A stretch of DNA of 64,000 nucleotides. Source: Candidatus Omnitrophica bacterium UBA6233 (GTDB taxonomy: Bacteria; Omnitrophota; Gorgyraeia; Gygaellales; Profunditerraquicolaceae). Position 1 is the first letter of the stretch. Each line of letters begins with the position of its first letter. This document shows, piece after piece, positions 1-16,100 of the stretch. The position numbers were made by a program, and so were the translations under genes. Where the stretch lies: assembly GCA_002440965.1 (NCBI GenBank), contig DJWJ01000026.1:23439-87438 (forward strand), given 5' to 3'. The notes beneath the pieces are model-generated. The model had not been told where the DNA came from and did not search any database. It worked only from the letters and a program-made list of their open reading frames with translations.

Positions 1-1577
1 CCCGGCGTTTTGTAGGAAGTCTTGAATTCAGACTGGGTTATGGCTGGCTTGGTTATGCCTAAATCCCCTGACCACAGATATTGAAGTTCAACTTGCAGAC
101 AACCGGTAGGGCCTAGAGACGTAACGCTATGAATAGCAACCTCTTCGCCTTTTTCCGGCAAATGTCGGCTAGATTCCAGACTTACCTTGCTCATATTCAA
201 ATTGGCAAATTCTTCTTTCAAAGCGGCATCCAAGCCCAGTTTAAGATTATATTCAAGAGGCTTGCCTTGATTGATTTCGCTCAATCTTTCCTGAATTACA
301 GCTAAGGCATCCGGATCAGAATTTCCCATCTTTTCCAACAACAAATTATAATATTCCTTGGCCGCCGGCAATTCCCCTTCCCACTGCTTTAACAAGCCTA
401 ATTGGTATAAGCCGGCTAACACATGTGGAGACAAAGCTTCTTTCCGGGCCAGCTGTTCAAAATACTCCCTCCCCGATTTCAGATCCCGCAAAACATAAAT
501 AAAGATAACCCCGCTTTTGTAGGCAACCTCATCGGCATGACTGCTTTTCGGAAAGGTTTTTAAGAACTCGGTATAAACATCTTTGGCCTGAGCAAAAACC
601 TTGGCCTTTTCCAGATTGAATCCTCGTAAATACATCAACTCCTCGCTCCAGGATTCTTTACCGCCTGCCTCCTCAATCTTCTTAAAGATTTTTTCGGCAT
701 AAAGCGGATCCGCCGCCGCGTTGTTGCTGTAAGCAAAACGCTTGGCGACCTCGGTTAATTCCGAAATCAATTTCTCTTTACTCAAACTTTTGGAAATTCT
801 TTCGATATAAATATCGTAAATAGTCTCCGCTAGTTCTAAATTAGCGTCTTTATAGAATTTATCGGTGATATTTCTTAACTCGGCGTCTTTAATGTCTGAA
901 CCGGCAAGTTTCAGGGCATAAATTTTATACAGCTCTTTGGCCTTACCGCTTTCATTATAAATAATCAGCTTATCCGCGATTTTCCTTACAACTTCCATAT
1001 CTCCGTTTGACTGCGCAAATCCTGTAACGGCGCTCATTAACTCCGTAAGAGACGCTTCACTGAATGTGTCTTGCTGATCCGCGTGGAACTGATACAACAA
1101 AAGCCGGGAATAAATATTTAAGGGGTCTTTAGAAGTAGTCGCGCCTAGCGCCGCTTGAGCGCAATTTACTATATCATCGCGATACTCGTTGCCTTTGGCA
1201 AAATATTCATCCCAGTTTTTAACATCCTCCAGATATTTAAGCTGGGAGTATCTTGCGAACGCTATGTAGTAATTAACAGCCGGCTCGACTGTTTTGTTTT
1301 CGGGACAAATACCCTTTAATAGCCCTACGAAATCAGTATATTTATTATCCTTGAAATACAAATCTTTTAGTTCATCAAGGCAAACTGGCTGGCTGGTTTT
1401 GCCTTCGCAGATACATTTGGTCAAAGTTTCGGCAGCATTTGGCTTTGATTCTTCGGCATATGAATGACAAATGTCAAAACTCAAATTACAAATGAAACTC
1501 AAAATTAAAATGACAAATATTAAAACGAAGGTTTCGTTATTTGAAATTTGACATTCTAGATCATTGGATTTTATCAT
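1..1577 (-). CDS. TPR-like repeat protein with family-specific N-terminal signal peptide; partial (C-terminal part lies beyond window start)
   Basis: Manual translation of the minus strand from ATG at 1577..1575 gives MIKSNDLECQISNNETFVLIFVILILSFICNLSFDICHSYAEESKP... and stays open to position 1. The N-terminus is homologous to the leader of the 4076..6421 gene. The body is helical-repeat/TPR-like (repeated Y/A/L-rich ~34-aa units). The ATG overlaps the upstream stop as ATGA. It is absent from the ORF track only because no stop codon falls inside the window. Confidence 0.55.
   Translation of the reverse strand, partial: MIKSNDLECQISNNETFVLIFVILILSFICNLSFDICHSYAEESKPNAAETLTKCICEGKTSQPVCLDELKDLYFKDNKYTDFVGLLKGICPENKTVEPAVNYYIAFARYSQLKYLEDVKNWDEYFAKGNEYRDDIVNCAQAALGATTSKDPLNIYSRLLLYQFHADQQDTFSEASLTELMSAVTGFAQSNGDMEVVRKIADKLIIYNESGKAKELYKIYALKLAGSDIKDAELRNITDKFYKDANLELAETIYDIYIERISKSLSKEKLISELTEVAKRFAYSNNAAADPLYAEKIFKKIEEAGGKESWSEELMYLRGFNLEKAKVFAQAKDVYTEFLKTFPKSSHADEVAYKSGVIFIYVLRDLKSGREYFEQLARKEALSPHVLAGLYQLGLLKQWEGELPAAKEYYNLLLEKMGNSDPDALAVIQERLSEINQGKPLEYNLKLGLDAALKEEFANLNMSKVSLESSRHLPEKGEEVAIHSVTSLGPTGCLQVELQYLWSGDLGITKPAITQSEFKTSYKTP
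1457..1577 (-). repeat. Leader cassette repeat, copy A (TGACAAATG… family); encodes the N-terminal signal peptide of the TPR-like gene
   Basis: catatgaatgacaaatgtcaaaactcaaat…aaattaaaatgacaaat… is homologous at the DNA level to 6271-6430. Confidence 0.75.
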
Positions 1578-2857
1578 TTTGATTTCGCCTTCTTTTTCTT
1601 GTTATTTAAGTTCGGATTCTTCCAGAACTCCCTAATCGCATAATAAGCCCTGCGGGGCGAACGTATATCCAAACCATCATCCGGATTTTTAGATAAGGAT
1701 ACAATTCCAAACCATTCCTCATTCATATTCTTATTGCCTTCCGCTCTGATATCGTAATAATAACTGCCGTTGGACCAGTTGGATATAGTATCGTGTACAT
1801 TCCACGAATCAGGATTACTGTCATCGTGTTTCCACCATTCATCCGTCCATTCAAACATTATGCCGCCCAAACAATTACCGGCTCCGCGTTTTTGTCCGGC
1901 CAGATTTTCATAGATCTGGCGCCACTGCGATTCCAGAAAAAACGCCTGCATATTCTGGTCTTCTTTCTTTAAAAAAGCGTCATAACAATCCGCTCCGAAT
2001 TCCGACAAAAGAATGGGCTTATCGAATGTCGCCTTTAACGACATGAAAAGATTGCCGAAAGTTTTCCCCCGGTAAATTATACAAGCTACCAAATCCACAT
2101 CCTTCGCTGCTTCTTTGGCATATTCAAGCCCTGCCAATTCTCCGTTACCTAAAGCTACCGGATGGTTCGGGTCAATTTTATGAATCTTTTGGGCTATCTC
2201 ATTAACAAAAGAATAATAAGTCTTGATTCGCAGGCCTTTTTGTTTCTGCGGGTCAGGTTCTTTGTCTATCTCTTCGCTTGACCATGGGTTGACGGTGCCT
2301 ATACAAGAATAATTATTTTCGTTCCCCAAGATCCAAAGCAAGACCCCCGGTTCATCTTTAAGGGAATTAACCATATCCAAAACCTGCTTTTCTATTCTTT
2401 CCCGGAACTTGACGTCTCCGTAAAGCGGACACGGATACTCCCAGAAACCCAGCCAGTCCCCGATAATCGTGCGGATGCCGTATTTCTCATATAAATCCCG
2501 GATTACTGTCTTTACTTTGCCTATATCTTCGGGCACCTGATAAAGCCTGATAGCATTAATACCCATCTCCTTCATCAACTTACCGTCGACGAGCCAGGGC
2601 TTGCGGGAATCGCTCCACCAGTCATATTCGTGATTTTTTCCGATAGGAATGGGGTTATAACAGACGCCCTTAACGACAAACGGACGGCCGTTTACAATAA
2701 GCTGATAATTCTTGTTTTTTAATTTTTTTATAAAGACTTTGGGTTGCTTTGCGCAGCCAAAAATAAAAAATAAAAATAAGATACAGGCCGCAAAAACAGC
2801 TGCTTTGCGGCCTGTATCAATCACAGATTTATTGCTATTATTCAAACTTGATTTCAT
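1574..2857 (-). CDS. Secreted/lipoprotein clan GH-A TIM-barrel glycoside hydrolase (GH17/GH72/GH5-like)
   Basis: The ORF 1574..2896 contains YQLIVNGRPFVVKGVCYNPIP, a WILGNENN acid/base NE motif, a LLSEFGADCYDA nucleophile EFG motif and GGIMFEWTDEWWK. It is paralogous to the C-terminus of the giant ORF and to the C-terminal half of 4076..6421. The N-terminus MKSSLNNSNKSVIDTGRKAAVFAACILFLFFIFGCAKQ looks like a lipoprotein signal. The start is ambiguous: ATG at 2857, ATG at 2896 or GTG at 2824. The first two overlap the 3' end of the 2838..3992 gene. Confidence 0.7.
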   Translation of the reverse strand: MKSSLNNSNKSVIDTGRKAAVFAACILFLFFIFGCAKQPKVFIKKLKNKNYQLIVNGRPFVVKGVCYNPIPIGKNHEYDWWSDSRKPWLVDGKLMKEMGINAIRLYQVPEDIGKVKTVIRDLYEKYGIRTIIGDWLGFWEYPCPLYGDVKFRERIEKQVLDMVNSLKDEPGVLLWILGNENNYSCIGTVNPWSSEEIDKEPDPQKQKGLRIKTYYSFVNEIAQKIHKIDPNHPVALGNGELAGLEYAKEAAKDVDLVACIIYRGKTFGNLFMSLKATFDKPILLSEFGADCYDAFLKKEDQNMQAFFLESQWRQIYENLAGQKRGAGNCLGGIMFEWTDEWWKHDDSNPDSWNVHDTISNWSNGSYYYDIRAEGNKNMNEEWFGIVSLSKNPDDGLDIRSPRRAYYAIREFWKNPNLNNKKKKAKSK

Positions 2858-3992
2858 CCAGATAGAAAGTGGCGCCTTCAGGATTATTATCGACATTTGC
2901 CGACCAGCAGAAACCGCCGATAATATAAGACATATCCTTGCCTTTTAAGTCAATGCTGTATTGCTTCCATTCTTTTTCCAGAATGACCGGCCCGATAACC
3001 GCGCTATCCGAATCGGAGAACTCACCCATAATACCGCCAACCTTAAACTCTTCGATGCGCTCGCCGCCTTTTGCGCCACGCGCGTAGAATGTCAGCTTGG
3101 TCGCCTTGGATAGATCGAACCCGGAATCAACCGTTCCCCAGTTATTAGCCGGATGCTGCCAGAATATCCCTGCCCAGCCGGAACCCTGCGTTTTTTGCCC
3201 GCTGTAAATTATCTTTACGCAAGTATCGCCCAGGTAGGGATCATCCTTTGAAGCTCCATCATACTTTAAGTCCCCATAATCACCCATCCAGCCCGAAGGA
3301 ATAAAATGATTCTTGGCTGAAGAACGGTCAGAGTAAATATAAAAAGGCAAAGCTTCCTGTTTCTTGCCTTCCGGTTTCAAAGAGGCGTCCGACTCGAATT
3401 TGACATCATCGATATAAAGCGTTGCCCCCTCGGGATTTAAATCCGAGGTTATCGTCCAGCCAAAACCGCCATTAATATAGGAAAGGTCTTTTCCGCTTAA
3501 ATTAACGGTGTATTGTTTCCAGCTATCGGTAAGTTCAATCGGCCCCATCTCCACTGACGCCGTATCCGGGTATGTGCCTTTTATGCCACCGACCATAACC
3601 TTCTGAATCACTTCCCCACCTTTTGCGCCCCGGGCCCAAAAGGTCAGTTTGTTCATACCGCTTAGATCAAAACCGCCTTTTTTATTTCCCCAGTTATTGG
3701 CCGGATTCTGCCAATAAACACCTGCCCAGCCTTGGCCTTGGGACTTCTTGGCGCTGTAGATAAACTGGATGCTAGTGGTGCCGCTTTTAGGATTATCGGC
3801 CGACTGATCATTCATTTTGATATCGCCGTAATCACCCATCCAGCCCGAAGGAATATAATGGTTTCCTCTTGCGTTTTTGTCGCTGTAAACCACGAATTCC
3901 TTTTGCGCGGCTTCGGCGGCTTTTTCTTCAGCCCTGGCTGTAATCGGCAGAGCTAAAGCCATAACTGCTAAAACCAGTACTAACTTTTTCAT
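2838..3992 (-). CDS. Secreted protein with two tandem ~170-aa beta-sandwich carbohydrate-binding-module-like domains
   Basis: ATG at 3992 is preceded by AAGGGGGTG (SD-like, 5 nt spacing); the track's start at 3998 is a GTG. The signal peptide is MKKLVLVLAVMALALPITARA. There are two internal repeats (…HYIPSGWMGDYGD…GWAGVYWQNPANNWG…GGFGWTI…ATLYIDDVKFE and …HFIPSGWMGDYGD…GWAGIFWQHPANNWG…GGFCWSA…ATFYLDEIKFE), typical of CBM-type aromatic-rich sugar-binding modules. Confidence 0.6.
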   Translation of the reverse strand: MKKLVLVLAVMALALPITARAEEKAAEAAQKEFVVYSDKNARGNHYIPSGWMGDYGDIKMNDQSADNPKSGTTSIQFIYSAKKSQGQGWAGVYWQNPANNWGNKKGGFDLSGMNKLTFWARGAKGGEVIQKVMVGGIKGTYPDTASVEMGPIELTDSWKQYTVNLSGKDLSYINGGFGWTITSDLNPEGATLYIDDVKFESDASLKPEGKKQEALPFYIYSDRSSAKNHFIPSGWMGDYGDLKYDGASKDDPYLGDTCVKIIYSGQKTQGSGWAGIFWQHPANNWGTVDSGFDLSKATKLTFYARGAKGGERIEEFKVGGIMGEFSDSDSAVIGPVILEKEWKQYSIDLKGKDMSYIIGGFCWSANVDNNPEGATFYLDEIKFE

Positions 3993-4075
3993 AAACACCC
4001 CCTTTTTTTAAGTTAAAACTAAAAGTAAAAAGTTGAAATCCAAAACCCTTTCTCTCCTTCCCCCTCCGTAAAAAA

Positions 4076-6421
4076 TTATCGCCAAAGTTTTTGATACGTA
4101 TAATATGCCTTGCGCAAATGCCTTAAGAAAGGACTATCCTTGCCATCTCCCTGCCCGCAAAGCCCTAACCATTCTTCATGCATAAAACCATCAGGAAATG
4201 GGCCGGCCCATAAACCTTTGGTATCATGGATAGAAGGTTCATACGCCTTCCACCATTCATCGAGCCACTCAAAAACCACTCCGCCGATTGCGGTTCCCGC
4301 TCCTGATCTAAAAGCCATATTATCTTCGATATCCTCCCAAGAAGCCTTATGGTAGACGGCTTGCGCTTCTTCCGACTCTTCAATAGTCTTTCCTTCGGCA
4401 TAAGCCGGACAACCAAACTCGGTAATAAACGCCGGCTTATCCGCTTCCTCTCTTACACTTTTCCAGAAACGGCCAAAACCGTAATTACCGCGGTAAGCAT
4501 TGGTGCCGAATATATCTATATCGGGAGTATTTTTGCCGAATTTATCCAAAAATAAAATATCTCCGCTGCAAATTGCCACCGGATGATCCGGATCGATAGA
4601 CTTTATTATCCGGGCCACTTCATTGGCGAACCTAAAAAATGCATCCGGCTCGGTGTTAGCGTTACAGGCATAACCATAGACGTTCTCGTTGCCCAAAAGC
4701 CAGAATAATATGAATGGTTCATCCTTATATTCGTTAACCATTTGTTTTACCGATTCAATCATATTCTTCTTTTGCTCTTCGTTGTTATAATCGGTGCCCG
4801 GATTCCACGCCGCTCCTGAACCAATCGCGTATTTGCCGAGGAAATCCCCCATTATCACCCGAATCCCGTAAGTCTTATACATATCCCGTAAAACTTCTTT
4901 ATCTATCTTCAATGGATGATGGTAAAGCCTTATCGTATTAACTCCCATATCCCTCATCAGCTTAAAATCGCCTACAGGGGCCTTCTTGGTATCCGTATCT
5001 AAATAAGAATCGTAGGGGCCATCGGCCTTGCCGTTATGATTGAAATCATCCAGCATCCAGCTGGTCTGCGTGCCTTCATCCGGAGACTGCCCTACCTTAG
5101 TCGGAGAATAAGTGATACCTTTGATTATATAAGGCTTGCCCTCTACCATAAGCTGCCAATCTCCGTTAGCATATTGCGCCGCGTAGACTTTCCCGTTGCC
5201 GGATTTTTTCCTGATTTCCGAAGATTCGGGTTTGGTTTTTGCGATTAATTTATCTAAAAGCCCGACTTTGACAAACTTCCCGGGGCTCACCATCGCCACA
5301 TCGTTGGAAACATCGTTATCATAACCGTTAATTATTTTAATATCCGCGCCTTCAAGCCTGTATCCGATTTGCGGATTGTTACGCAAAATGTAATTTATCT
5401 TGGCGAGCGCGGCTTGGCCCACATACCAGGGCGTATGCCAATAGGTCCAGCCATAGCTAGCCGGAAAATGCACGACTATGGCATAATAGCATTTCAACGC
5501 ATGTTTTGTTAAGCCTGATTTTTCCAGCAACAGGGCTGTATAAAATAATTTTACGCCTTGGGGTTCGTTGGAAGTAGCCCATTTTAAAAACGCCGCCTCT
5601 AAATCCGGCGAATGCGAGAAATCCCATAAATCTCCATCGAGCCGCTTTTCTTTTTGCGCCTTTTTGAATTCCGGATCCCACCTGACTGAAGCCGTATTAG
5701 GGTATATCCCCTCTCCGACCGCGGCAATCAAACCCTCCTGATCAGCCGCTACATACTTGTAATTTTTGGTTCCGGTATCGATAAACTCTCCGTATTTTTC
5801 ATAATTGACAAGGTCTTCGGTTCCTGGGTCATACAAAACGATTTTCGTGGGAAGCTGGCTGACTTTCTTTTTTTGCTCAATTTCAATCGAACCGGTCTCA
5901 ATCTTTTTCAGGCTCTGCTCGCTGGCCAGTTTTAGCGACCAGAACCACCCTCGCGGATCCCAGGCCTGGGCAAACGGATATTTATTAACTATCAATTTGA
6001 ATATTTTCTTGGCTTCCCCGGACTTGTCCTGGCGCATTAAGGACTCTGCCTGAATAAAATAGGCGGTTGCCACATCATTTAAAATTTGCACGTCTTCAAT
6101 TTCATTCTTGGCCTTAGGAAGCGCTTTCAAACCTGCCTCCTGCCTATCCGCTTCATCTTTATATAAATCAATCAACTGTTGGGTATATTTAAAGGTAGCT
6201 TCCACATCCCTCTTGCCGTGACTAGCCCAGGATTTATTAATCAATTCCCCGGAGGACGGCTTGTCTTCTGCATATGAATGACAAAGGTCAAAACTCAAAT
6301 GACAAAATAAATTCAAAATTAAAATGACAAAGGTCAAAACAAATGTTTTGACCTTGGAAATTTGACATTTGCCTGCCTGCCGGACAGGCAGGGATTTATT
6401 TTGAATTTTGGATTTTGTCAT
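4076..6421 (-). CDS. Secreted two-domain glycoside hydrolase: conserved leader, unknown N-domain, C-terminal clan GH-A catalytic domain
   Basis: The leader is MTKSKIQNKSLPVRQAGKCQISKVKTFVLTFVILILNLFCHLSFDLCHSYA|ED. The C-terminal half has KPYIIKGITYSP, LLGNENVYGY (NE) and FITEFGCPAY (EFG, GH72-like FFSEYGCN context), plus GGVVFEWLDEWWK. Confidence 0.7.
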   Translation of the reverse strand: MTKSKIQNKSLPVRQAGKCQISKVKTFVLTFVILILNLFCHLSFDLCHSYAEDKPSSGELINKSWASHGKRDVEATFKYTQQLIDLYKDEADRQEAGLKALPKAKNEIEDVQILNDVATAYFIQAESLMRQDKSGEAKKIFKLIVNKYPFAQAWDPRGWFWSLKLASEQSLKKIETGSIEIEQKKKVSQLPTKIVLYDPGTEDLVNYEKYGEFIDTGTKNYKYVAADQEGLIAAVGEGIYPNTASVRWDPEFKKAQKEKRLDGDLWDFSHSPDLEAAFLKWATSNEPQGVKLFYTALLLEKSGLTKHALKCYYAIVVHFPASYGWTYWHTPWYVGQAALAKINYILRNNPQIGYRLEGADIKIINGYDNDVSNDVAMVSPGKFVKVGLLDKLIAKTKPESSEIRKKSGNGKVYAAQYANGDWQLMVEGKPYIIKGITYSPTKVGQSPDEGTQTSWMLDDFNHNGKADGPYDSYLDTDTKKAPVGDFKLMRDMGVNTIRLYHHPLKIDKEVLRDMYKTYGIRVIMGDFLGKYAIGSGAAWNPGTDYNNEEQKKNMIESVKQMVNEYKDEPFILFWLLGNENVYGYACNANTEPDAFFRFANEVARIIKSIDPDHPVAICSGDILFLDKFGKNTPDIDIFGTNAYRGNYGFGRFWKSVREEADKPAFITEFGCPAYAEGKTIEESEEAQAVYHKASWEDIEDNMAFRSGAGTAIGGVVFEWLDEWWKAYEPSIHDTKGLWAGPFPDGFMHEEWLGLCGQGDGKDSPFLRHLRKAYYTYQKLWR

Positions 6422-6430
6422 TTGTCATTA
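6271..6430 (-). repeat. Leader cassette repeat, copy B; spans the upstream gene's stop, the start codon and the signal peptide of the 4076..6421 GH; contains GC-rich hairpin 6376-6398
   Basis: On the minus strand: TAATGACAAATGACAAAATCCAAAATTCAAAATAAATCCCTGCCTGTCCGGCAGGCAGGCAAATGTCAAATTTCCAAGGTCAAAACATTTGTTTTGACC…CATTCATATGCAGAAGAC. The stem is cctgcctg/caggcagg (8 bp, loop ccgga) and it encodes LPVRQAGK. Confidence 0.8.
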
Positions 6431-7276
6431 CCCAACAACGGCTCCCTGCGTAACTCCCTTGACAATATACTTCTGCATCAAAAGGTATAACAATATAATA
6501 GGTATTATAGATATGGTTAAGCCTGCCATCAAAAGCGGATAGCGCGTGACAAACTCTCCCTGGAAAGTAATCAGAGCCACCTGCAGCGGCATCAGCGGCC
6601 GGGAATCGAAAATAAGCAAAGCCAAAATAAACTCGTTCCAGACATTAAGCGCGTTTAAAACCACAACTACCGCCAATACCGGCTTAGCCAAAGGCAAACA
6701 TACGTGCCACCAGATTCCGAATTTCGAACATCCGTCTATACGGGCGGCATCTTCTAATTCCTTAGGCATCCTGTCGAAAAAAGTCTTTAACAGGAATATA
6801 CTGGTGGATAATCCTACGTTGATCATACACAAAATATAACCGAAAGGCGTATTTCTCAAATGCAATTTATTCAACAACACATACAACGCGACGAAACTAC
6901 CCTGTATAGGAATCATCATTGCCGCGATAAACACGAAAAAGATTATATTCTTTCCGGGGAATTTAAGCCGGCTAAAAGCATAAGCGGCCATAGAAGAGAC
7001 AATGATTATCCCGATAACTACCGAAACTGTATAAAAAAGGCTGTTCAGGAAATACCGGTCAAATCCCCCCTGTATCCAAGCCTGATAATAATTTTCAAAA
7101 TGCGGCACCTTGGGGATAATCGACATATCTTTAAAGATTGTTTCCTGGGTTTTCAAACTCGAGGAAATCATCCAGAGCAGAGGAAAAAGGCAGGTTACCG
7201 ACACGGTAAGCATGAACAAATGAATGATTGTGTTCTCGCTTATTTTCTTCACTTTGTAATAGAGACTTGAACGCAT
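6428..7276 (-). CDS. Carbohydrate ABC transporter permease (MalG/CUT1-like)
   Basis: Six TM helices and the EAA loop motif DAARIDGCSKFGIWWHVCLPLAKP. ATG at 7276 lies 4 nt after the upstream gene's TAA. The track's start at 7318 is a TTG. Confidence 0.85.
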   Translation of the reverse strand: MRSSLYYKVKKISENTIIHLFMLTVSVTCLFPLLWMISSSLKTQETIFKDMSIIPKVPHFENYYQAWIQGGFDRYFLNSLFYTVSVVIGIIIVSSMAAYAFSRLKFPGKNIIFFVFIAAMMIPIQGSFVALYVLLNKLHLRNTPFGYILCMINVGLSTSIFLLKTFFDRMPKELEDAARIDGCSKFGIWWHVCLPLAKPVLAVVVVLNALNVWNEFILALLIFDSRPLMPLQVALITFQGEFVTRYPLLMAGLTISIIPIILLYLLMQKYIVKGVTQGAVVG

Positions 7277-7280
7277 TTTT

Positions 7281-8153
7281 TTAAGCCTTGGATTTTTTAT
7301 TAACCATATACTGGACAAAAGAAATCATACATAAAATAACGCCGAAAGTGATACCTTGCGCGCAGGCATAGCCGAAACGCGATGAGCCGCGCATGGAAGC
7401 AAGTATCCTTAAAACCGGAACCTCTGTGTGATAGCCGGGCCCGCCGCCGGTCATCGTATAAATCAACACAAAAACCTGCATCGTGCCTAAAATCGTCAAT
7501 ATCGCGACCAAAACCACTACCGGCATCATCAGCGGAATAGTAACGTTCTTAAACGAATTCCAGGCGTTTGCTCCATCCACGCGCGCGGCTTCGTAAAGTT
7601 CGCGGGGAATAGTTTGTAACCCGGCCAAAAACAACAAGAAACCCCAGCCAAAGCCTTTCCAGCAATGCACGATTGCTACCGTAGTTAAGGCAGTGTTCGG
7701 GTCAGAGAGCCAGTTATGCGCCAAATTAGCCATCCCGAATTGGGCAAGCCAGTAATTTAAAATTCCGTAATTCCCGTTTAAAATCCACTGCCAGACAAGG
7801 CCGACGACTACTTCCGACAAAACCGGCGGAATGAAGAAAATCAAACGGTAGAAATTTTTCATCCGGATTTCGCGGTCGCACGCCCAAGCCAGCAAAAAAG
7901 CGATGGCGTTCTGAAAGGTAAGCGCGATTAACGTAATATAACCGGACTGCCAGACAGCCTGCCACCAAACCTTGTCGGTGATAACTTCTTTAAAATTACT
8001 CAGTCCCACGAAAATCTTGGTAGGGAGTATCCCGTCCCAGTCAAAAAATGAAAGCTGAAAAACCGAAATAAAGGGAATGATATAAAATACAGCGAAGATT
8101 ATTGTCGCGGGAAGAACAAAGATATAGTTTTCTAGAGTAGCTTTGAGTTTCAT
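7281..8153 (-). CDS. Carbohydrate ABC transporter permease (MalF/CUT1-like)
   Basis: Multi-TM protein with EAA motif YEAARVDGANAWNSFKNVTIPLM. ATG at 8153. Confidence 0.85.
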   Translation of the reverse strand: MKLKATLENYIFVLPATIIFAVFYIIPFISVFQLSFFDWDGILPTKIFVGLSNFKEVITDKVWWQAVWQSGYITLIALTFQNAIAFLLAWACDREIRMKNFYRLIFFIPPVLSEVVVGLVWQWILNGNYGILNYWLAQFGMANLAHNWLSDPNTALTTVAIVHCWKGFGWGFLLFLAGLQTIPRELYEAARVDGANAWNSFKNVTIPLMMPVVVLVAILTILGTMQVFVLIYTMTGGGPGYHTEVPVLRILASMRGSSRFGYACAQGITFGVILCMISFVQYMVNKKSKA

Positions 8154-8174
8154 ATTTATTACTTAAATCCGAAG

Positions 8175-8320
8175 ACCGGAGCCCAAAATTCAAAGTTCAA
8201 AGCTCAAAATTCAAAATAGATCTAAATGACAAATATCCAATGACAAAACTTTAGTTTTAGATTTTGACATTTGGTTTTGGGATTTATTTTGGATTTTGAA
8301 TTTTGTCATTTGTCATTACA
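8175..8320 (-). repeat. Leader cassette repeat, copy C (degenerate, non-genic, between the SBP and permease genes)
   Basis: On the minus strand: TGTAATGACAAATGACAAAATTCAAAATCCAAAATAAATCCCAAAACCAAATGTCAAAATCTAAAACTAAAGTTTTGTCATTGGATATTTGTCATTTAGATCTATTTTGAATTTTGAGCTTTGAACTTTGAATTTTGG. It contains a 31-codon remnant ORF MTKFKIQNKSQNQMSKSKTKVLSLDICHLDLF* that is homologous to the MTKSKIQNKS…LSFDLCH leader. Confidence 0.7.
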
Positions 8321-8322
8321 AG

Positions 8323-9631
8323 CTATATTCTCTTCTTGGCCATCTCGCGTTCTTTAACCTTCTGCACTTCTTGCGCCACCTGTTCCGGAGTTTTCTCGCC
8401 TATAATTATGGATTGAATCCCCTTATCAAAAGCTTCGATAACCGGAGAAAATTCCGATACGCCCCAAACATTCGGATGCGTAGCATTATCCATAGCCCTG
8501 GCGAAGCTCGCCGTAACATCCGGAACCAAATTCGAGCTCTCTTTATTTGCCGGCAGGTTATTGGTCGCCTCTGCCAAATAAACCTGTTGGGGAGCTTCAG
8601 TCAGCCAACGCAGGAATTTGACCGCCTCTTCTTTATTCCTGGAACGGCTATTGACCATAAAAGACGAACCTGCGCCTCCCCAGATAGCCATTGGATATTT
8701 GTTCGAAGCTCTCGGAGGAAGAAACGCCCCATATTCAAGATTAGGATTCATCCCTTTGTAAACATTTACACACCACGAGCCATTAAAAGCAAATACTGCT
8801 TTTTCATTGGCGAACAACTGCTCAGCGGTTTTATTTACCATAGTAACTATACCGCTAGCCAACAATCCCGAATCCTGCATATCTTTAAATAAAGACAAAA
8901 CTTTAACCCAATCCGGGTCAGTATAAGGAACCTGGCCTTTTATAGTAGCGATTACCTTGTCTTTACCCATAATATTAAACGCATAATTATTAGCCAGGCA
9001 ATCAATCATCCAAATCTCTCCCCATCCTGAAACTAACCCCTGCATATTGGCGGCTTTAATCTTCTTTCCGATATCAAGAAAATCCTGAAAGGCCTGCGGA
9101 GGCTGGTTGGGATTAAGCCCTAATTGTTTAAATAAAGACTTATTATAGACCATTTGAATGGTCATTATGTCAATAGGCGCTCCGTAAATACCCGGCTTAA
9201 TTCCATAACTATTGCCTTCGTTAAATTCGTTTACGGCTAAAGCCTTGGCAAAAAAACTATTCTTCCATCTAGCCTCATCTTCCAGCATATAAGGCGTAAG
9301 CTCCAAAACATAATCCGCTTTGATAAAAGAAGCGAAATCCCTTTTCTCGCCCAATATGCCAAAAATATCCGGCAGGTTTGCGCCTTGGGCCGCAGCGCGG
9401 ACTTTCTGCGAATAGGCGTCGGAAGGAGCGTAGAGTTCGAAATTTACTTTTATACCGGTCTTGGCTTCGTATTTTTTAGCCAGCTCATTAAAAGCGGGGC
9501 CGCGGTCAGTCATCCAATGCCATACCATCAGAGTGGTTACAGCCTTATTTTTTTCGGCAGGCGCGCAACCGATCAGGCAAAAGACGCAAGAAACAATTGC
9601 TAGCGATAATATTCTAAACCTAGAACTCCGC
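8323..9631 (-). CDS. ABC transporter extracellular solute-binding lipoprotein (sugar, family 1)
   Basis: ATG at 9631 is preceded by AGGAGG. Lipoprotein signal MRSSRFRILSLAIVSCVFCLIGCAPAEK, then an SBP_bac_1-like body (…MVWHWMTDRGPAFNELAKKYE…). Confidence 0.85.
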
Positions 9632-9692
9632 ATCTGTCCTCCTATAATATAGTCATTTCCGGCTATTTTCTTATCTAAAGGCGGAATATTAA

Positions 9693-9721
9693 AATTTAAC
9701 ATAAGTTACTGGAAGGGTCAA
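9693..9721 (-). promoter_or_regulatory. Candidate sigma70-type promoter (TTGACC-N17-TAAATT) upstream of the SBP/permease genes
   Basis: Read on the minus strand: TTGACC (9721..9716), 17 nt, TAAATT (9698..9693), in the 115-nt gap between the PilZ stop and the SBP start. Sequence match only. Confidence 0.25.
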
Positions 9722-9746
9722 GGCTTTTATTCAGGTTTTATTGCAA

Positions 9747-10061
9747 TTAAACGGCTCTTAAAACCCTGGACATCCCCATAAAATCCGCTCTCTCCAAGCT
9801 TACCCCGATATTATACTCGCTAGGATTGACCATCCTTGACCAGGCAACTTCTCCCCGGGTATAGAATGGCTCGCCTTTGTCCGGAACATCCAGCCATATC
9901 TCTAGCGGGGTGCGAAGCCTTAATTCCTCCTTCGCCATAAATCCTATGCCCTTAGCGCTGATGTCCCTGGTCTCTCCGGAACCCTCCACACTTGCCCTCG
10001 GATCAATGAATCTTAAGGGGAACCTAGCCTGAAACCGTTCAAAGATTCTTCGGTCATCCAT
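9747..10061 (-). CDS. PilZ-domain c-di-GMP-binding protein
   Basis: 104 aa. It has an RxxxR motif (RRIFERFQARFPLRF) and a D/NxSxxG motif (DISAKGIGF). The SD-like GAGGGGG lies ~8 nt upstream of the ATG. It begins 40 nt after the giant ORF's stop. Confidence 0.8.
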   Translation of the reverse strand: MDDRRIFERFQARFPLRFIDPRASVEGSGETRDISAKGIGFMAKEELRLRTPLEIWLDVPDKGEPFYTRGEVAWSRMVNPSEYNIGVSLERADFMGMSRVLRAV

Positions 10062-10101
10062 CTTTTACCCCCTCTCTTTTAATAAGCGCCTGCGCCATTC
10101 T

Positions 10102-13100
10102 CTACGGCTTTATTATATTCTTATTCTGTTTTTTTTCAACTTTTACCTTATTATTTTTCCCTTCGGCCAGGTTTCTCCATAACTGCTTGACTACATAATA
10201 ACTCTTCCTGGGAATGCGTTTATTCAAGCCGTTCTCCGTCTCTTCGGACACTGCCACAATCCCAAACCATTCCTCATTCATATTTTTATTGTATTTAGCT
10301 CTTATATCATGGTAGTAACTTCCGTTGGACCAGTTCGATTCGGTATTATGAGCCTTCCACCCGTCGCTGTTATTACATTCCTGGGCGGATTCATTATGCT
10401 TCCACCATTCATCTGTCCATTCAAACATTATCCCGCCTAAACAATTGCCCATGCCTTCTTTACTGCCGGCTAAATTTTCATAAATCTGACGCCACTGCAT
10501 CTCCAGGAAATACGCCTGCATATTCTGGTCTTCTTTGTTTAAATAGGCGTCATACGCGTCAGCGCCAAACTCTGCCACCAGAATCGGCTTATCAAGATCG
10601 GCCTTTACAGATTTGAATAAATTCCCGAAGGCCTTACCACGATAAATCATACAGGCGATTAAGTCAACGTCTTTTGTTACGGCCGCAGCCAAAGCTAGAT
10701 TCGTAATTTCACAATTACCTAAGGCTACCGGATGGTTAGGGTCTATTTTATGAATCTCTTTGGCCACTTCATTGACAAAAGAATAGTAAATCCTGGCGCG
10801 CATCTCGATTTGTTTCGAAGGATTCGGTTCTTTGTCGATTCCGCTGGTGCACCAAGGCCTAAATTGTCCGGAGAAAGAACGGTTATTTTCATTACCCAAA
10901 ATCCACATTAAGACTCCCGGTTCATCCTTATACCGATTAACCATTTCTAAAACTTCCCTTTTGATTTTTTCCCGGAAATCCTTAGCATTATACGCGGAGC
11001 AAGGCCCATCCCAGAGCCCCAAATCGTGGCCTAAAATAGTGCGGATACCATAAAGCTTGAAGAAATCCCTGATTACCTGCTTAACTGCCTGCGGATTCTG
11101 CCCAACCGTATAAATTCTGCCTGTATTCAAGCCCATATCTTGCATCAATTTTCCGTCGGTAATCCAAGGCTTACCCGGGTCAGACCACCAGTCATAATCA
11201 TAGTTCTGACCGATAGGTATAGGATTATAACAAACACCTTTAACAATATATGGCTTACGTTCGACTATCAACTGGTGATAGCTGTCTTTGGACTTATTGA
11301 TATAAACCTCGGGCTGAGGAACAGGAGAAATCTGCATTATAGCCATCAAAATAAGGAAAGCGAATAAAACCAAACAAAGCTTTCCTATCTTCTTAACTAT
11401 CCATTTTAATGGACAAAACAAATAACCGGAGACAAGAGCGGCTACGCAAACCAACGGTTTCAACTTCAAGGTAAGATTTCGTAATGCCAGCTTCGCATAT
11501 TCCCAAACAAGAGAATAAGGACGTTCGAATATTCTGGCCTGGGCTGCGATTGCTTCCGGGTCGCTGGAGAATTTTTCGTGGAAGGAGATTTGCGCGACTA
11601 TGAATCTTATTTCTTGAGGAGAAAATCCTAATTTGGCGAGCAGCTGTTCAGTTTCTTTTTTTCGGGCTTTATTCCAGGTTTTATTGGTAGCGATAGGATA
11701 ATCCAATATCGCGGCGTGCTCATCTTCGGTTAAATCTTGGATCAATTTTGCTAATCCTGTTCTTCCTTGCGGAGGCGCCTTAAGTTTACCTGAATAAATA
11801 AGATACCTTACTGCCGCTATCCTGAATAAAGCATTACCAAATTCATTGAACCGCAAAGAAATTCCCCGATGATCATAATAATCAAATTCGGCCTCATAAC
11901 AATCGCGGGCGGTGATAGCGTGCCCGTTCTGCCTGGATAGATTAATAGCGAATAATTTGGCTGCTCTGTATAAAGCAGGCGCTCCCCGCTTGATTCCGCC
12001 CTTATACCTTTCTATCGCCATTTTAGCCAGCCCGGGCGTAGCATATTTAGGAAGAGTCGCTTTCCCTATCGGCATAAAAGCTGCGAATTCTAATTTATCC
12101 CGGCTACCCTGGCCATTCTTATATTCCAACCCATATTCCTGGGAAATCTTTCCTGTTTTCTCCACTAAAAACGCGATCTTTTTTTCGTAAGCCATACTAT
12201 GAAAAGTATCGGCATTTTCTATAATACAATCTTTTAAGGCTTCTAAAGCTTTCTTGATTTTTTTGTCTTTTATAATAGCCAAGGAATAAAAATCTAAACA
12301 GGCCATGAAGAAAATGGCCAAGTCTGTCTTGTGCATCTTTAACCGGTTGTGCAATATTAAACTCCATACTTTCTTTTCTTTTTCCAGAAACCGTATATTT
12401 GGATTACCGTTTTCCCATAGTTTATATTCGATTAATAAACTCTGAAAAAGGGAAGATTCTCTACTATCTAATTCAATACCAAAGAATTTGGCCGTCTTGC
12501 GCAAAAACTGGCTTTTGTTTTCTCTTGTGTTCAATACCGCTTCTAATGCAAATCCGGGCGTAGGATATTTATAGACTATCCCTTTACCAAAAGGAACAAA
12601 AGCAGCTATTTCAAGTTTATCTTTTTCGCCATTGCCGTTGTTATAATTTAAATTATACCTTTGAGACAGCCTGCTTACCTCTGCTATCAACAAGGTTGCC
12701 TTTTTTTCTCTACGCAACTGTTTAAAGAAATGCCTTTTTTGGTACAGGAAAATAACTAATCCCCTGACAGCTTTATGTGTAACAACATCGCTGATGATTG
12801 TATTATCAACTAGCTTAACCCAGATTATCCATTGCGCGGCAATGCCGCCTTTGACTTTATTTAACTTATAAGAATAAAATACAGCTGATAATTCCTTAAT
12901 TTGAGCGATAATACCGGCATCCAAATGCGATTTTTCCCACGCCTTGTATTCGTTAACGGCATTGGTAAAACGCGCGCGCAGGCTTTCGGTAATTCTTTTA
13001 GATAGCTTTATACCAAAAGCATTAGCCCTCATAAGCAGAAGCGGATATTTCTTCTTTATTTGTCCTTGATCATGCATAAGCGCCTTTTCCAGTTCTCTTT

Positions 13101-16100
13101 TCACAATGCCCAGGGTGGGATATTTAGGAAAAACACCGCAGCCCATAGGCGTTAAAGCCGCAAATTCCAGCTTATCTCTTTCGCCTAACGCGCCATTATT
13201 ACCATACCCTAGACCATACTCTTCAGATAATTTATCCGCTTTTATCATTAAAACTCTTGTCCTGTATTCATAAGACATTGACTGAATATTACCTTTCTCT
13301 TTTTCCACATAATCCTTCAATGCCCACAACGCCCTTTTAGTCTGCGCGTCTTTAATCAAAGTTAAACCCTGGATATCCAACCATACCGATATGTAGGCGA
13401 CCGCATCTTTTCCTTTCTTATCTAACCTGTTACTCCTTAATAGTTCCCATAGCTTCTTTTCTTTCGCGATCAGATCTGCATCCTTTTGGGCGCTTTCCCA
13501 GTTGTTGTATTTGACCAGTATTATCTTGTACAGAAACCGGCACCCCTCGGTCAACCTGATGTTGAATGTCTTGGCTGCCCTGTAAAGCATCTGATCCCGG
13601 GCTCCGGATATCCAACTCTCTATTGCTAATCCGGGAGTATGGTATCTTGCGACTTTACCATACAACATTGGAGGCAAAGCCGCGAATTCCAGCTTATCTC
13701 TTTCTCCATTGCCGCAAGCATAATCCAAGCCGTAGCGCTTCGCTAACTCTTCGGCTTCCTTGGCCAAAAATCTTGCCTTGCCCTTGCGGCCTAATTTCAG
13801 GAAATATTCCTTGTCCAGGGATAAGGAAAAAATCAGTCTTTCAACCGCTTTCCTGGTAAGATAGCTGGAAATGGCCAGCTGGCTAAACAGCTTCATCCAT
13901 ACTATCCAGGGATAAATCGGATTTTTTGCATGAAAGAATTCCGTAAAGTTATTGCGCCGGTAGATATCCCAAATCTTTTCGGCCTGGCAGCGTAAATCCA
14001 GGGCTTCATTATCCTTATTATTATGCCTATACTCATCCACAGCTTTTTGATAGGAAGGCGGATTGGGAATGGATTTATTTAATAAGAAAAACTTGCTGGT
14101 TGTCTTGCTTGACCTGATAACAAACATGCTGCTGAAAAATCCGATAAATTTCCTGTCATCGCTTATTTTTCTCCTGACAGCTCCTAATACAGCCCTGCCG
14201 AATCTACTTTCATAGCCTCTCTTGAGCACCGATTCTTCAACATACTGTGCAACTTCACGGGAAAAATCAGCATTCGAGAATATAACCAATAATGCTGTTG
14301 TTAAACGAGATGTACACTCTTTTTTGGATTTCTCGGATAGAATATCTAGAATTACTTTAAACACATCTTCTTTTTTAGTTATGGTATTACCCACCCTATT
14401 CGCTATCGGTTTTTGATATTTTTGTTGGCCCGCTATCAACCTTAACCTCTTCAAAGATTTTTCTTCAATCTGCCTGACTCTTTCTTTTGTCAGACATAAT
14501 AAATCGCCGATTTTTTCAAGGGTCATTCTTCCGTTATCGAAAGAGAACAAGCCGTAACGCAGTATCAACACTATCCTCTCATCATCCTCTAATTTTTCCA
14601 ACATAACGCCTACGGCTTCCTTCAATATTGCCCTGCGGGTATTCTCCTGAGGAGAAGCAAACGTATTTTGTTCGATGAAACTTCCCTGGCTATCTTCGCC
14701 TTCCGAGCTGATTGGAGCATCCAATGATACAGGGTCGCGAATCTCAAGTAGCTTTTTGATTTTTTCTACAGGCAAGCTCATCCGCTGAGCCAGTTCTTCA
14801 GGAGCAGGTTCTCTTCTATATTCCTGTACGAACTTCTGGGAAATCTTCTCTAATTTATATTTTTTCTCCAACATATAAACCGGCGCCCGTATCATATGAT
14901 TCTTCTCCGAAAGTGCTCGGGTAATTGCCTGGCGTGTCCACCAAGAAGCATAAGTGGAGAACTTATTGCCTTTCTTATAATCAAATTTTTCGATAGCCGG
15001 GAACAATCCTAATCTTCCGTAGCCGAATAAATCATCGAATGTCATCCCGCAGCCAGGGTATTTTTTGATAATATCACCCACCAGCCCAAGATTACACATT
15101 ACCAGGCAGCCAGTAATGGTTTTTGTCTCTTCGGGGGCCTTTACCGCGTGAAGAGCTTTAAATAACTCAACCTCTTCTTCTCTGCTCAGGACGTAACGGA
15201 AATTTTTAAATCTAAACTGGGCCAATATTCTCCTAGCTAAGCCTAAGCCATCCTCTTTAATATTCTTAAACAGGACTTTTGCTAACCTCTCTGCAGCCCT
15301 TACGTTTTCTTTTTTATTAATTAAATGCCCGTGCTCATGCTCAAACAGTTCTATTAAAATGGCCTCTTGGTTTGCTTGGATAAGTTTGACTATTAATTCA
15401 AGGGGAATGATAATCTGGGAATTATAAAGGCAGGCGGCTATGAATCTTTCTATGCTATCATACAAAAGTAAGCCCGGAGGGCCTTTTGACCTGACATCCG
15501 AATCAGCAAGAAATAAATAAACATTCTCTTTATTGAGCCAGCGGATTAACTGGGGAGTCAAAGCCAACAACGCCTTTTTATCCTGAGGTAAATCCTTATA
15601 GCGAACAAGACGATTCTCTTTCTGTGCCTTGGAGATGACTTTCTTCGTCTGCTTCTTGGCTTTTTTATCCATAGCGCCTTCTTCATAAATTCCCAACCCG
15701 CAGGCAGAGACATCGGGATCTTCTTCTAACAACTCTTCAATTTTTGTCGTTTCCCGTCCTGAAGCAAACCAGGCAATGCCCACAGGATTAGGCAACTGCA
15801 ACAGCGTAAGCCGCTTTTCTTTAAGCGCAGAAACAACGGCCCGGGTTGAAACGGACACGATTAAGAATGCTGAAAATATTGAAAGGAATAGCATCGCAGT
15901 AAAAAGATTGTTGTAAGAAACAAAGGCACATATAAATAAAGTTATCCCGGAGAAACTGATAATGAAAGGTATTAATGCGCGGCCACGATGATCCGTTAAC
16001 CGGTTCGGGCCAGCTTCCTGAAACGCGCGGCTAAAGGCGCTTTCCGGGCCTCTATTCAACGCTATATCTTTAATTCGCCGGGCCACTCCTTCGGTAAATC

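Follow-up and report, generated by a model that had tools for sequence, protein, structure and literature searches.

Three paralogous clan GH-A glycanase domains in a giant-gene cassette of an Omnitrophota bacterium, one of them fused to the giant protein

The window, a stretch of 64,000 nucleotides from an Omnitrophota genome, encodes three paralogous clan GH-A glycoside hydrolase (GH) domains, two in free-standing genes and one at the C-terminus of a giant open reading frame. In our judgement, these are probably catalytically competent, retaining beta-glycanases of one large family, with GH158 and GH157 as the nearest characterised families, which would act in an extracytoplasmic harvest cassette.

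Results

Three clan GH-A domains and the gene between the free copies

All genes of the set, as well as the giant ORF, are on the minus strand. The hydrolases and their immediate partners are the following:

1574-2857, minus: small GH (GHs), 427 aa, with a lipoprotein-type signal peptide followed by a stand-alone clan GH-A TIM barrel; acid/base E180 at nt 2318-2320, nucleophile E286 at nt 2000-2002
2838-3998, minus: CBMx2, a secreted protein of 386 aa with two tandem beta-sandwich CBM-like modules
4076-5200, minus: GH-A domain of the 781-aa protein (aa 408-781, 374 aa; ORF 4076-6421), located by Pfam, PDB phmmer and motifs; acid/base E579 at nt 4685-4687, nucleophile E668 at nt 4418-4420
5201-6421, minus: N-terminal part of the 781-aa protein, a signal sequence and a domain of about 400 aa with one weak TPR_6 match
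10102-11280, minus: fused GH-A domain, the C-terminus of the giant ORF (aa ~17547-17939, last ~390 aa); acid/base E17678 at nt 10888-10890, nucleophile E17784 at nt 10570-10572

The paralogy that an earlier note had proposed from the sequence proved real (BLASTP E 0 to 1e-67). The small GH and the giant C-terminus share 64% identity over 369 aa (E 0), and the GH domain of the 781-aa protein matches the other two copies at 1e-68 and 2e-67, with 33-34% identity by BLASTP and 39% in a MAFFT alignment. Every motif quoted in that note occurs in the three copies, which all carry KGVCYNP or KGITYSP, LGNEN, IYRG or AYRG, SEFGA, TEFGC or AEFGA, and FEWxDEWWK. The (beta/alpha)8 barrel (TIM-barrel structure model, pLDDT 84.7), with Asn-Glu after beta4 and the Glu nucleophile after beta7, is that of clan GH-A. 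This acid/base and nucleophile are kept in 3/3 window copies and in ~150 of ~155 domains that represent 150 clusters formed at 50% identity, and the D-x-W-W-K motif after beta8 is invariant across the family, whose clade comprises about 3,200 clusters at 50% identity. PF26410 is listed among the precomputed matches for many orthologues. The three copies are under purifying selection, with dN/dS values of 0.07, 0.07 and, for the fused copy, 0.14.

The two downstream copies had been described as soluble secreted enzymes. Export signals are indeed present, but the small GH is a predicted lipoprotein (lipobox FIFGC) rather than a freely soluble protein; its signal peptide leads to the barrel within ~15 residues, and the lipobox is found in about half of its orthologues. 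In the N-terminal domain of the 781-aa protein, the TPR_6 match (2.6e-4) is below the Pfam cut-off, and searches gave no PDB sequence match at E<=1 and no NCBIfam match. Its pairing with a GH is seen again, at 29-49% identity, in representatives of 50% clusters, distant relatives included.

The set of two free GH genes had also to be enlarged, as the gene between them, CBMx2, belongs to it. Its stop overlaps the start of the small GH by 20 nt, it always lies between the two GH genes in related loci, and its dN/dS is 0.03. A Sec signal peptide is visible in the translation. CBMx2 has no Pfam match and an NCBIfam match to the choice-of-anchor J domain (2.6e-11), and Foldseek matches of its AF2 model (pLDDT 83.5) comprise tandem CBM22 (1.3e-10), BtSGBP-B, CBM30, CBM11, CBM8, CBM29, CBM4 and CBM16, a CBM-like fold that points to no particular glycan. 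In distant relatives, the window-type GH is fused to a CBMx2-like module (P0154) or to CBM30 (P0152).

Importer and gene order

Between the 781-aa protein and the giant ORF are located the components of a sugar importer and a putative c-di-GMP receptor:

7281-8153 and 6428-7318, minus: two CUT1-type ABC permeases (Pfam BPD_transp_1; NCBIfam UgpA/E, GlcT/U, MalF/G)
8323-9702, minus: extracellular solute-binding protein (family 1) of an oligosaccharide ABC importer (Pfam SBP_bac_8, SBP_bac_1)
9747-10061, minus: PilZ-domain protein, putative c-di-GMP receptor (Pfam PilZ, 7.8e-10)

The permeases are MalF/MalG or UgpA/UgpE-like. The nearest solved relatives of the binding protein bind chitin oligosaccharides, arabino-oligosaccharides, xylo-oligosaccharides or maltose (2e-24 to 1e-17) and indicate no specific ligand. 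The PilZ gene is immediately downstream of the giant ORF, a position conserved in related loci. As far as contigs reach, the order PilZ, binding protein, two permeases, (MFS_2), TPR-GH, CBMx2, small GH was found in 80/80 Omnitrophota loci; the GPH symporter (MFS_2) is present in about a quarter of them, and none of the 80 importer operons contains an ATPase gene. Rfam revealed no riboswitch or other RNA family in positions 1-12000 of the window, and promoter and terminator scans gave nothing informative. This synteny over 80 Omnitrophota genomes bears out the earlier suggestion that a membrane-tethered copy and exported copies beside a sugar importer serve digestion and uptake, an arrangement that is already published (see below).

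Family placement

By sequence and fold, the nearest solved relatives are the beta-1,3-glucanases of GH158 and GH157, with GH2 and GH5 close behind and GH72 and GH17 lower. GH158 was the top sequence match (single sequences gave 4.8e-14 and 3.4e-7, and the family profile 7.9e-14), the GH domain of the 781-aa protein matching GH158 9oro at 4.8e-14 and BuGH158 6pal at 6.8e-10 in a phmmer search of the PDB; the HMMER match to GH158 spans only ~140-170 residues, approximately from beta3 to beta7. On alignment, both catalytic Glu are present and fall on residues with a demonstrated catalytic role in GH158: LGNEN and xEFG correspond to E143/E229 in GH158(Pro) and to E137/E220 in BuGH158, where changing these residues to alanine was reported to abolish activity. 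No confident placement in an unrelated GH-A family was found.

The architecture differs from that of each of these families. GH158 (BuGH158 6PAL; GH158(Pro) 9ORO/9P25) has a C-terminal eight-stranded Ig-like domain packed on the barrel, which helps shape the cleft and which the window domains lack, whereas D-x-W-W-K is the window family's own. Also, the setting of GH158 is a Bacteroidota SusC/D locus, and that of the window copies an ABC-importer cassette in Omnitrophota. GH157 (LaGH157, 9FZ9/9G5G) has an extra C-terminal domain (527 aa), and no GH157 was detected by sequence search at E<=1. The catalytic barrel model of GH2 (PF02836) is the basis of the public annotation, but in GH2 an N-terminal sugar-binding jelly roll and an Ig-like domain precede the barrel; both are absent from the window domains, and neither Glyco_hydro_2_N nor Glyco_hydro_2 has a Pfam match in the window proteins; the N-terminal domain of the 781-aa protein is unrelated to those of GH2. 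With neither the GH158 Ig-like domain nor the N-terminal domains of a GH2 enzyme, the window domains do not clearly belong to either family.

Were they nevertheless exo-glycosidases of GH2 type (beta-galactosidase, beta-glucuronidase or beta-mannosidase), their role would be to remove terminal sugars from imported or periplasmic oligosaccharides. Glyco_hydro_2_C is the only Pfam GH model above its cut-off of 21 bits (25.9 for the small GH, 42.6 for the 781-aa protein), NCBI calls orthologues 'GH2 TIM barrel-domain containing protein' and JGI calls some of them beta-glucuronidase, and GH2 structures rank just under GH158. However, the fused copy scores 20.5 bits, under the same cut-off, NCBIfam equivalog models reach 17-33 bits against cut-offs of 544-2000, and GH2 is found by sequence at 1e-6 to 1e-8 against 1e-14 for GH158. 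GH2 membership was rejected on the domain architecture, and we consider this explanation quite unlikely. Endo-beta-1,4-glycanases of GH5 type (mannanase or cellulase-like), in place of beta-1,3-glucanases, are unlikely: GH5 ranks close behind in the comparison above, but sequence searches gave 5e-3 or worse against 5e-14 for GH158, and Pfam Cellulase (PF00150) has no match in the window proteins at E<=0.1. The score of one orthologue (P0273) with this model, 25.3 bits for a cut-off of 23.5, reads as generic GH-A signal. The affinity to GH17 and GH72 suggested previously turned out to be weak, as Pfam GH72 (PF03198) gave 19.5 and, for the 781-aa domain, 21.7 bits, under its cut-off of 25.9, GH17 gave no sequence or profile match, and GH158 and GH157 are nearer. 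In our view, it is extremely improbable that these domains are GH72/GH17-like beta-1,3-glucan transglycosylases or hydrolases directed at a fungal-type wall. Such a wall is without support as a target, but beta-glucan survives in a weaker form; it stays the leading guess for the substrate, because the nearest families, GH158 and GH157, are beta-1,3-glucanases.

The enzymes could also process a self-made polysaccharide under c-di-GMP control, in the manner of PslG or BcsZ, instead of taking part in external harvest. The conserved cassette, however, contains no synthase or exporter, and its binding-protein-dependent importer, like the GPH symporter of some loci, works inward. Processing of a self-made polymer is therefore very unlikely in our view, and external harvest by beta-glycanases nearest to GH158 and GH157 is the explanation that we prefer.

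The giant ORF, its fused glycanase and its MalK domain

The giant ORF and the parts of it considered here are the following:

10102-63921, minus: giant ORF, complete, 17,939 aa, with ~41 hydrophobic segments by hydropathy and mostly cytoplasmic-type enzyme domains
11320-11451, minus: two hydrophobic segments in the hydropathy scan (aa 17491-17509 and 17516-17534) with KKIGK between them; the fused GH follows directly
29242-30474, minus: MalK/MsmX-type ABC sugar-importer ATPase domain (aa ~11150-11560; Pfam ABC_tran and OB_MalK)

Pfam matches along the giant ORF include ROK, HMGL-like, VWA, AAA_5, NHL, GGDEF, ABC_tran/MalK, patatin, radical SAM, HEAT and two copies of sigma-70. With both hydrophobic segments spanning the membrane and the preceding region in the cytoplasm, the fused GH would be cytoplasmic.

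The second segment lies, in the alignment, where the free-standing paralogue has its signal peptide and, for this reason, looks like an internal signal anchor. Following the positive-inside rule and the analogy with the paralogue's signal peptide, we infer that the fused GH would be periplasmic. The same fusion is found, in one open frame, in an independent near-identical MAG contig (L001, JAQUOO010000010.1), and is therefore not an artefact of this assembly; a GH fused to the giant was seen only in the window and in this contig. In a second giant fragment (P0143), sigma-70 is followed by a signal-peptide-like segment and this by a GH domain.

Two other explanations of the fused copy were discarded. 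A separate gene would need a plausible in-frame internal start codon with an n-region, which is lacking, and the open frame is the same in L001. A recent duplication of the adjoining small GH does not agree with the NJ tree, where the fused copy branches as sister to all 80 small-GH orthologues, outside of them, nor with its identities, 64% to the small GH of its own genome and up to 70% to others. Tree and identities thus fit a paralogue of old standing, a transfer or a copy that evolves fast.

The embedded MalK domain is intact, with Walker A, signature, Walker B and H-loop all there, and it matches PDB entries 7x0q (6.9e-115), MalK 1g29 (8.8e-115) and MsmX (5.4e-111). It may energise the downstream importer. 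Since MsmX-type ATPases commonly have their genes away from those of their permeases, an operon without an ATPase gene is no proof that the MalK of the giant is used. A second giant ORF with an embedded MalK (L081) was the sole close relative in a metagenome scan; the 16 other MalK loci with checked frames were ordinary stand-alone genes of 368-407 aa (one frame 900 aa).

Discussion

We propose that all three GHs would be outside the cytoplasm, the small one as a lipoprotein, the 781-aa one by means of its signal sequence, and the third held at the inner membrane by the internal signal anchor as C-terminus of the giant. Together with the secreted glycan-binding protein CBMx2, they would cut a beta-linked polysaccharide, by our leading guess beta-glucan, into oligosaccharides, which the adjacent binding-protein-dependent CUT1 ABC importer, supplemented in some relatives by a GPH/MFS symporter, would take up. 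The MalK-type ATPase domain inside the giant would probably supply the importer with energy, and PilZ together with the GGDEF domain of the giant suggests c-di-GMP control. Paralogy, fold, catalytic residues, export signals, gene order and purifying selection are seen in the data; we infer how the fused copy lies in the membrane, which polymer is cut, that MalK serves the importer and how the system is regulated.

A further, tentative possibility, which we think has a minor though real chance of being correct, is that the domains form a new clan GH-A family, sister to GH158/GH157 and marked by the D-x-W-W-K signature, and that the giant ORF has grown by absorbing its own sugar-harvest genes. 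The fused glycanase would then retain its former signal peptide in the role of an internal signal anchor, with the MalK of the importer in the same polypeptide, and a single protein would physically connect the cutting of polysaccharide in the periplasm with ABC import and with sugar metabolism in the cytoplasm. The fragment P0143 and L081 hint that such a design is recurrent.

The giant proteins of Omnitrophota are an open puzzle, and the current idea is that giants and their neighbours digest prey cell walls. Our analysis indicates that the flanking 'GH2' enzymes consist of stand-alone barrels whose closest relatives are beta-1,3-glucanases, and that a CBM-like protein and an importer accompany them. 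Knowing what these GHs cut and what CBMx2 binds would tell which polymer is harvested by the cassette throughout the phylum. Judging from the fused copy and the MalK inside the giant, some part of this protein, at least, may work with the importer; if true, a nutrient-acquisition role anchored in the bacterium's own membrane would be favoured over a purely extracellular weapon. For CAZy, the family is a sizeable uncharacterised clade, currently mislabelled as GH2.

The cassette follows the same logic as the Bacteroides locus 1,3GUL, in which a surface or periplasmic endo-glucanase (GH158) is combined with non-catalytic glycan-binding proteins and an importer, and BtSGBP-B is among the structural matches of CBMx2. 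It differs in transport, which relies on SusC/D in 1,3GUL and here on CUT1 ABC, in some loci together with a GPH symporter, and the cassette showed neither a GH3 nor a GH16 partner. Within Omnitrophota, the window fits the giant-gene cassette of passages in two preprints (West-Roberts et al., 2023, bioRxiv 10.1101/2023.11.21.568195, also for PilZ in the cassette; 2026 preprint, 10.64898/2026.06.07.730766), in which pilZ and the genes of a solute-binding protein, of permeases and of glycosyl hydrolases come after a giant gene; a giant of 147,155 aa is flanked there by two 'GH2' genes that have a single gene between them. The digest-and-import cassette is thus already known from these passages. 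Both preprints label the enzymes GH2, and the 2026 one considers carbohydrate import near giants a weaker signal than secretion and CAZymes. The passages of both preprints drawn on here make no mention of a GH158/157 affinity, a CBM-like middle gene, an anchored GH fusion or a MalK inside the giant. What appears to be new is the giant-fused copy behind a signal-anchor-like segment, the tandem CBM-like middle gene, and the intact MalK of the giant beside an importer operon without ATPase.

Gene organization and paralogous catalytic domains

The 3' end of a complete giant ORF opens a row of seven downstream genes in the window, all of them on the minus strand:

10102-63921, minus strand, giant ORF, complete, 17,939 aa
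9747-10061, minus strand, PilZ protein
8323-9702, minus strand, family-1 solute-binding protein (SBP)
7281-8153, minus strand, ABC permease
6428-7318, minus strand, ABC permease
4076-6421, minus strand, 781-aa protein (TPR-GH)
2838-3998, minus strand, 386-aa protein (CBMx2)
1574-2857, minus strand, 427-aa protein (small GH)

Three paralogous glycoside hydrolase (GH) domains correspond to the C-terminal ~390 residues of the giant protein (the fused copy), the C-terminal 374 residues of the 781-aa protein and the entire mature 427-aa protein, with pairwise identities of 64% and 33-39% (BLASTP E-values 0, 1e-68 and 2e-67). An earlier note had recognized three paralogues by shared motifs, and each of these was indeed present at equivalent positions in every copy. 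Homologues of the three downstream proteins occurred in Candidatus Omnitrophota MAGs at 68-99% identity.

The CBMx2 and small GH genes share 20 nt (2838-2857), where the stop of the former overlaps the start of the latter. Many related loci (e.g., L006, L008) have this overlap too, which suggests translational coupling. Both free-standing GH genes carry strong hairpins in their 5' coding or leader sequence: a GC-rich palindrome, CCTGCCTGCCGGACAGGCAGG, just past the permease stop (6372-6392), a hairpin with an 11-bp stem (6330-6355), and one with a perfect 16-bp stem in the part of the small GH gene that encodes the signal peptide (2780-2818). The palindrome pattern reappeared in intergenic spots of 4 of the 80 related loci, and many orthologue gene calls have similar N-terminal translations of the 'GRQAKVS' type.

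Family placement of the GH domains

The Pfam matches of the GH domains were only weak. Glyco_hydro_2_C scored 25.9, 42.6 and 20.5 bits (cut-off 21), GH72 reached 19.5 and 21.7 bits (cut-off 25.9), and the Pfam search gave no match to GH17. The GH2 equivalogs of NCBIfam scored 17-33 bits against cut-offs of 544-2000. Among PDB sequences the best match was GH158, both for the domain of the 781-aa protein (9oro, 4.8e-14; BuGH158, 6pal, 6.8e-10) and for the small GH (9oro, 3.4e-7), as well as for a profile of 89 family sequences (7.9e-14); GH2 came next (1e-6 to 1e-8). The AlphaFold model of the small GH (pLDDT 84.7) is a TIM barrel without extra domain, and Foldseek also placed GH158 on top (1.3e-14). 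Based on these sequence and structure rankings, the domains belong to clan GH-A and are closest, by a small margin, to two beta-1,3-glucanase families, GH158 and GH157. The earlier note was right on the clan, and its GH17/GH72-like label was imprecise.

Both catalytic positions align with GH158: the Glu of LGNEN with the acid/base (E143 in GH158(Pro), E137 in BuGH158) and the Glu of xEFG with the nucleophile (E229 and E220, respectively). The GH158 papers describe NMR evidence that the configuration is retained, a covalent intermediate, and alanine mutants that lose activity. One structural feature speaks against GH158 membership, the Ig-like domain that GH158 carries and that the window's GH domains lack.

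Other readings of the domains have to be weighed against this placement. A GH2-type exo-glycosidase agrees with the second rank of GH2 in the PDB sequence searches and of GH2 glucuronidases in Foldseek (1.6e-13), but the accessory domains of GH2 are missing. The domains were therefore filed in neither GH158 nor GH2. GH157 followed in Foldseek (1.9e-11), ahead of GH5 (~1e-10) and of the GH72 enzyme Gel4 (3e-10). Further rival readings, less likely than the main one, are a GH5-type beta-1,4-glycanase and a GH72/17-type transglycosylase.

The wider clade to which these domains belong is large: clustered at 50% identity, the search matches amounted to 3,249 cluster representatives at E<=1e-3 and to 604 at E<=1e-30. 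Catalytic residues are kept almost universally, and a near-invariant D-x-W-W-K motif after beta8 is the clade's own. Some distant relatives carry a fused CBMx2-like module (P0154) or CBM30 (P0152), and others present two or three tandem GH domains or dockerin and PKD fusions (P0121, 1263 aa; P0122, 818 aa; P0126, 1535 aa, with dockerin and PKD). Proteins of ~1,000 aa with an N-terminal GH domain (P0139 type) were found outside Omnitrophota, in Oligoflexus and in a Spirochaetales MAG.

The giant protein and its embedded ATPase

In the 17,939-aa ORF, enzyme and regulator domains, most of them of cytoplasmic type, form a mosaic in which ~41 hydrophobic segments are interspersed. Its Pfam domains comprise VWA, AAA_5, NHL and HEAT as well as:

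~60616-61518, minus strand, ROK
~52588-53364, minus strand, HMGL-like
~31825-32295, minus strand, GGDEF
29242-30474, minus strand, ABC_tran and OB_MalK (MalK/MsmX-type ATPase, aa ~11150-11560)
~28282-28839, minus strand, patatin
~18043-18408, minus strand, radical SAM
~16282-16947 and ~14440-15105, minus strand, two sigma-70 copies

An extracellular adhesin is a poorer fit to this protein than the 'multi-enzyme metabolic cluster' class described in a 2026 preprint (10.64898/2026.06.07.730766).

The ABC_tran/OB_MalK region is a complete MalK/MsmX-type ATPase with Walker A, signature, Walker B and H-loop, matching solved sugar-importer ATPases (PDB 7x0q, 6.9e-115). In the metagenome contig L081, a MalK domain of 73% identity (10001-11221) lies within a frame that is open over the full 21 kb retrieved; the frames checked in 16 more distant relatives were those of ordinary genes (368-407 aa, and 900 aa in one case). 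No ABC ATPase gene was detected in the window's SBP-permease operon or in 80 related operons. With no ATPase gene in the importer operon, it is plausible that the embedded MalK domain is coupled to the importer.

The fused GH copy

Among loci in which the end of the ORF preceding PilZ is visible, only the window and L001 (JAQUOO010000010.1, a near-identical MAG contig) carry a GH domain there. At 32 other loci the upstream frame stops without a GH domain or consists of a short PilZ-like ORF, and two more loci showed no plus-strand ORF upstream of PilZ. Of the 34 loci whose upstream ORF is readable, 13 have a second small ORF of 110-136 aa directly ahead of PilZ (L002 2106-2480, L004 2201-2572, L009 664-1044, L013 2229-2588, and others); its C-terminus is typically …WWKGL/WWRGA, and it occupies the place of the giant ORF end in the window.

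Two hydrophobic segments separated by KKIGK precede the fused GH domain, the second at the position of the paralogue's signal peptide, and no usable internal start codon was found ahead of the domain. The fused copies lie outside the group formed by all 80 small-GH orthologues in a neighbor-joining tree; a recent local duplication therefore does not explain the fusion. Another Ca. Omnitrophota giant-protein fragment, P0143 (MCA9405668.1, 3,075 aa, partial), presents sigma-70 (aa 389-634), a signal-peptide-like segment (…SFNAHA, aa 1016-1034), a GH domain of the 781-aa type (aa 1077-1444, 51% identity) and >1,600 more residues. This order parallels that of the window's giant (sigma-70 at aa 16255-16495, GH at aa 17547-17939), and exported GH domains embedded in giant proteins thus seem, from these predicted proteins, to be recurrent beyond this window.

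Conservation of the cassette

The gene order PilZ, SBP, permease, permease, TPR-GH, CBMx2, small GH was observed on every contig reaching far enough among 80 Omnitrophota genome loci, with identities of 63-96%. Calculated against L001, dN/dS was 0.03 for CBMx2, 0.07 for the small GH, 0.07 for TPR-GH and 0.14 for the fused copy, and all four are under purifying selection. About a quarter of the related loci contain an extra sugar symporter of the MFS_2/GPH family (~500 aa) between the permeases and the TPR-GH gene or beside the SBP gene (L007 4766-6268, L008 4865-6367, L014 2831-4357, L015 4819-6333, L037 2577-4076, L078 549-2072); it is absent from the window's cassette.

Proposed function

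The 386-aa CBMx2 has a Sec signal peptide and an NCBIfam 'choice-of-anchor J' match, with no domain in the Pfam search. Its model (pLDDT 83.5) contains two beta-sandwich modules, whose top structural match was a xylanase tandem CBM22, followed by BtSGBP-B, CBM30, CBM11, CBM8, CBM29, CBM4 and CBM16. It is best read, on this predicted fold, as a secreted glycan-binding protein. The SBP is a generic CUT1 oligosaccharide binder.

We propose that exported retaining glycanases would cleave a beta-linked polysaccharide in three forms: a lipoprotein, a protein with an accessory domain at its N-terminus, and a copy tethered to the giant protein. They would be helped by the CBM-like protein, and the resulting oligosaccharides would be taken in via the CUT1 importer, the system being possibly regulated by c-di-GMP through PilZ and GGDEF. 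The nearest families and the CBM fold class make a beta-1,3 or mixed-linkage glucan our leading guess for the substrate, one that we hold tentatively and well short of probable. As a less likely alternative, the GH domains may process a self-made exopolysaccharide.

Comparison with known systems

Keyword searches of the 2026 preprint and of West-Roberts et al. (2023; 10.1101/2023.11.21.568195), both on Omnitrophota giant genes, returned no GH158/GH157 affinity, CBM-like middle gene, signal-anchored giant fusion or embedded MalK domain; these four points therefore appear to be new. The reading of the locus as a digestion and uptake system, already made in the earlier note, is sound and had been published before: both preprints describe such loci, so the idea is not new. 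Prey cell-wall digestion was proposed by West-Roberts et al. (2023). In the 2026 preprint, 'GH2 catalytic-domain proteins' dominate among the hydrolases that flank giants, and one giant is listed with two such genes with one gene between, an arrangement that matches that of the window.
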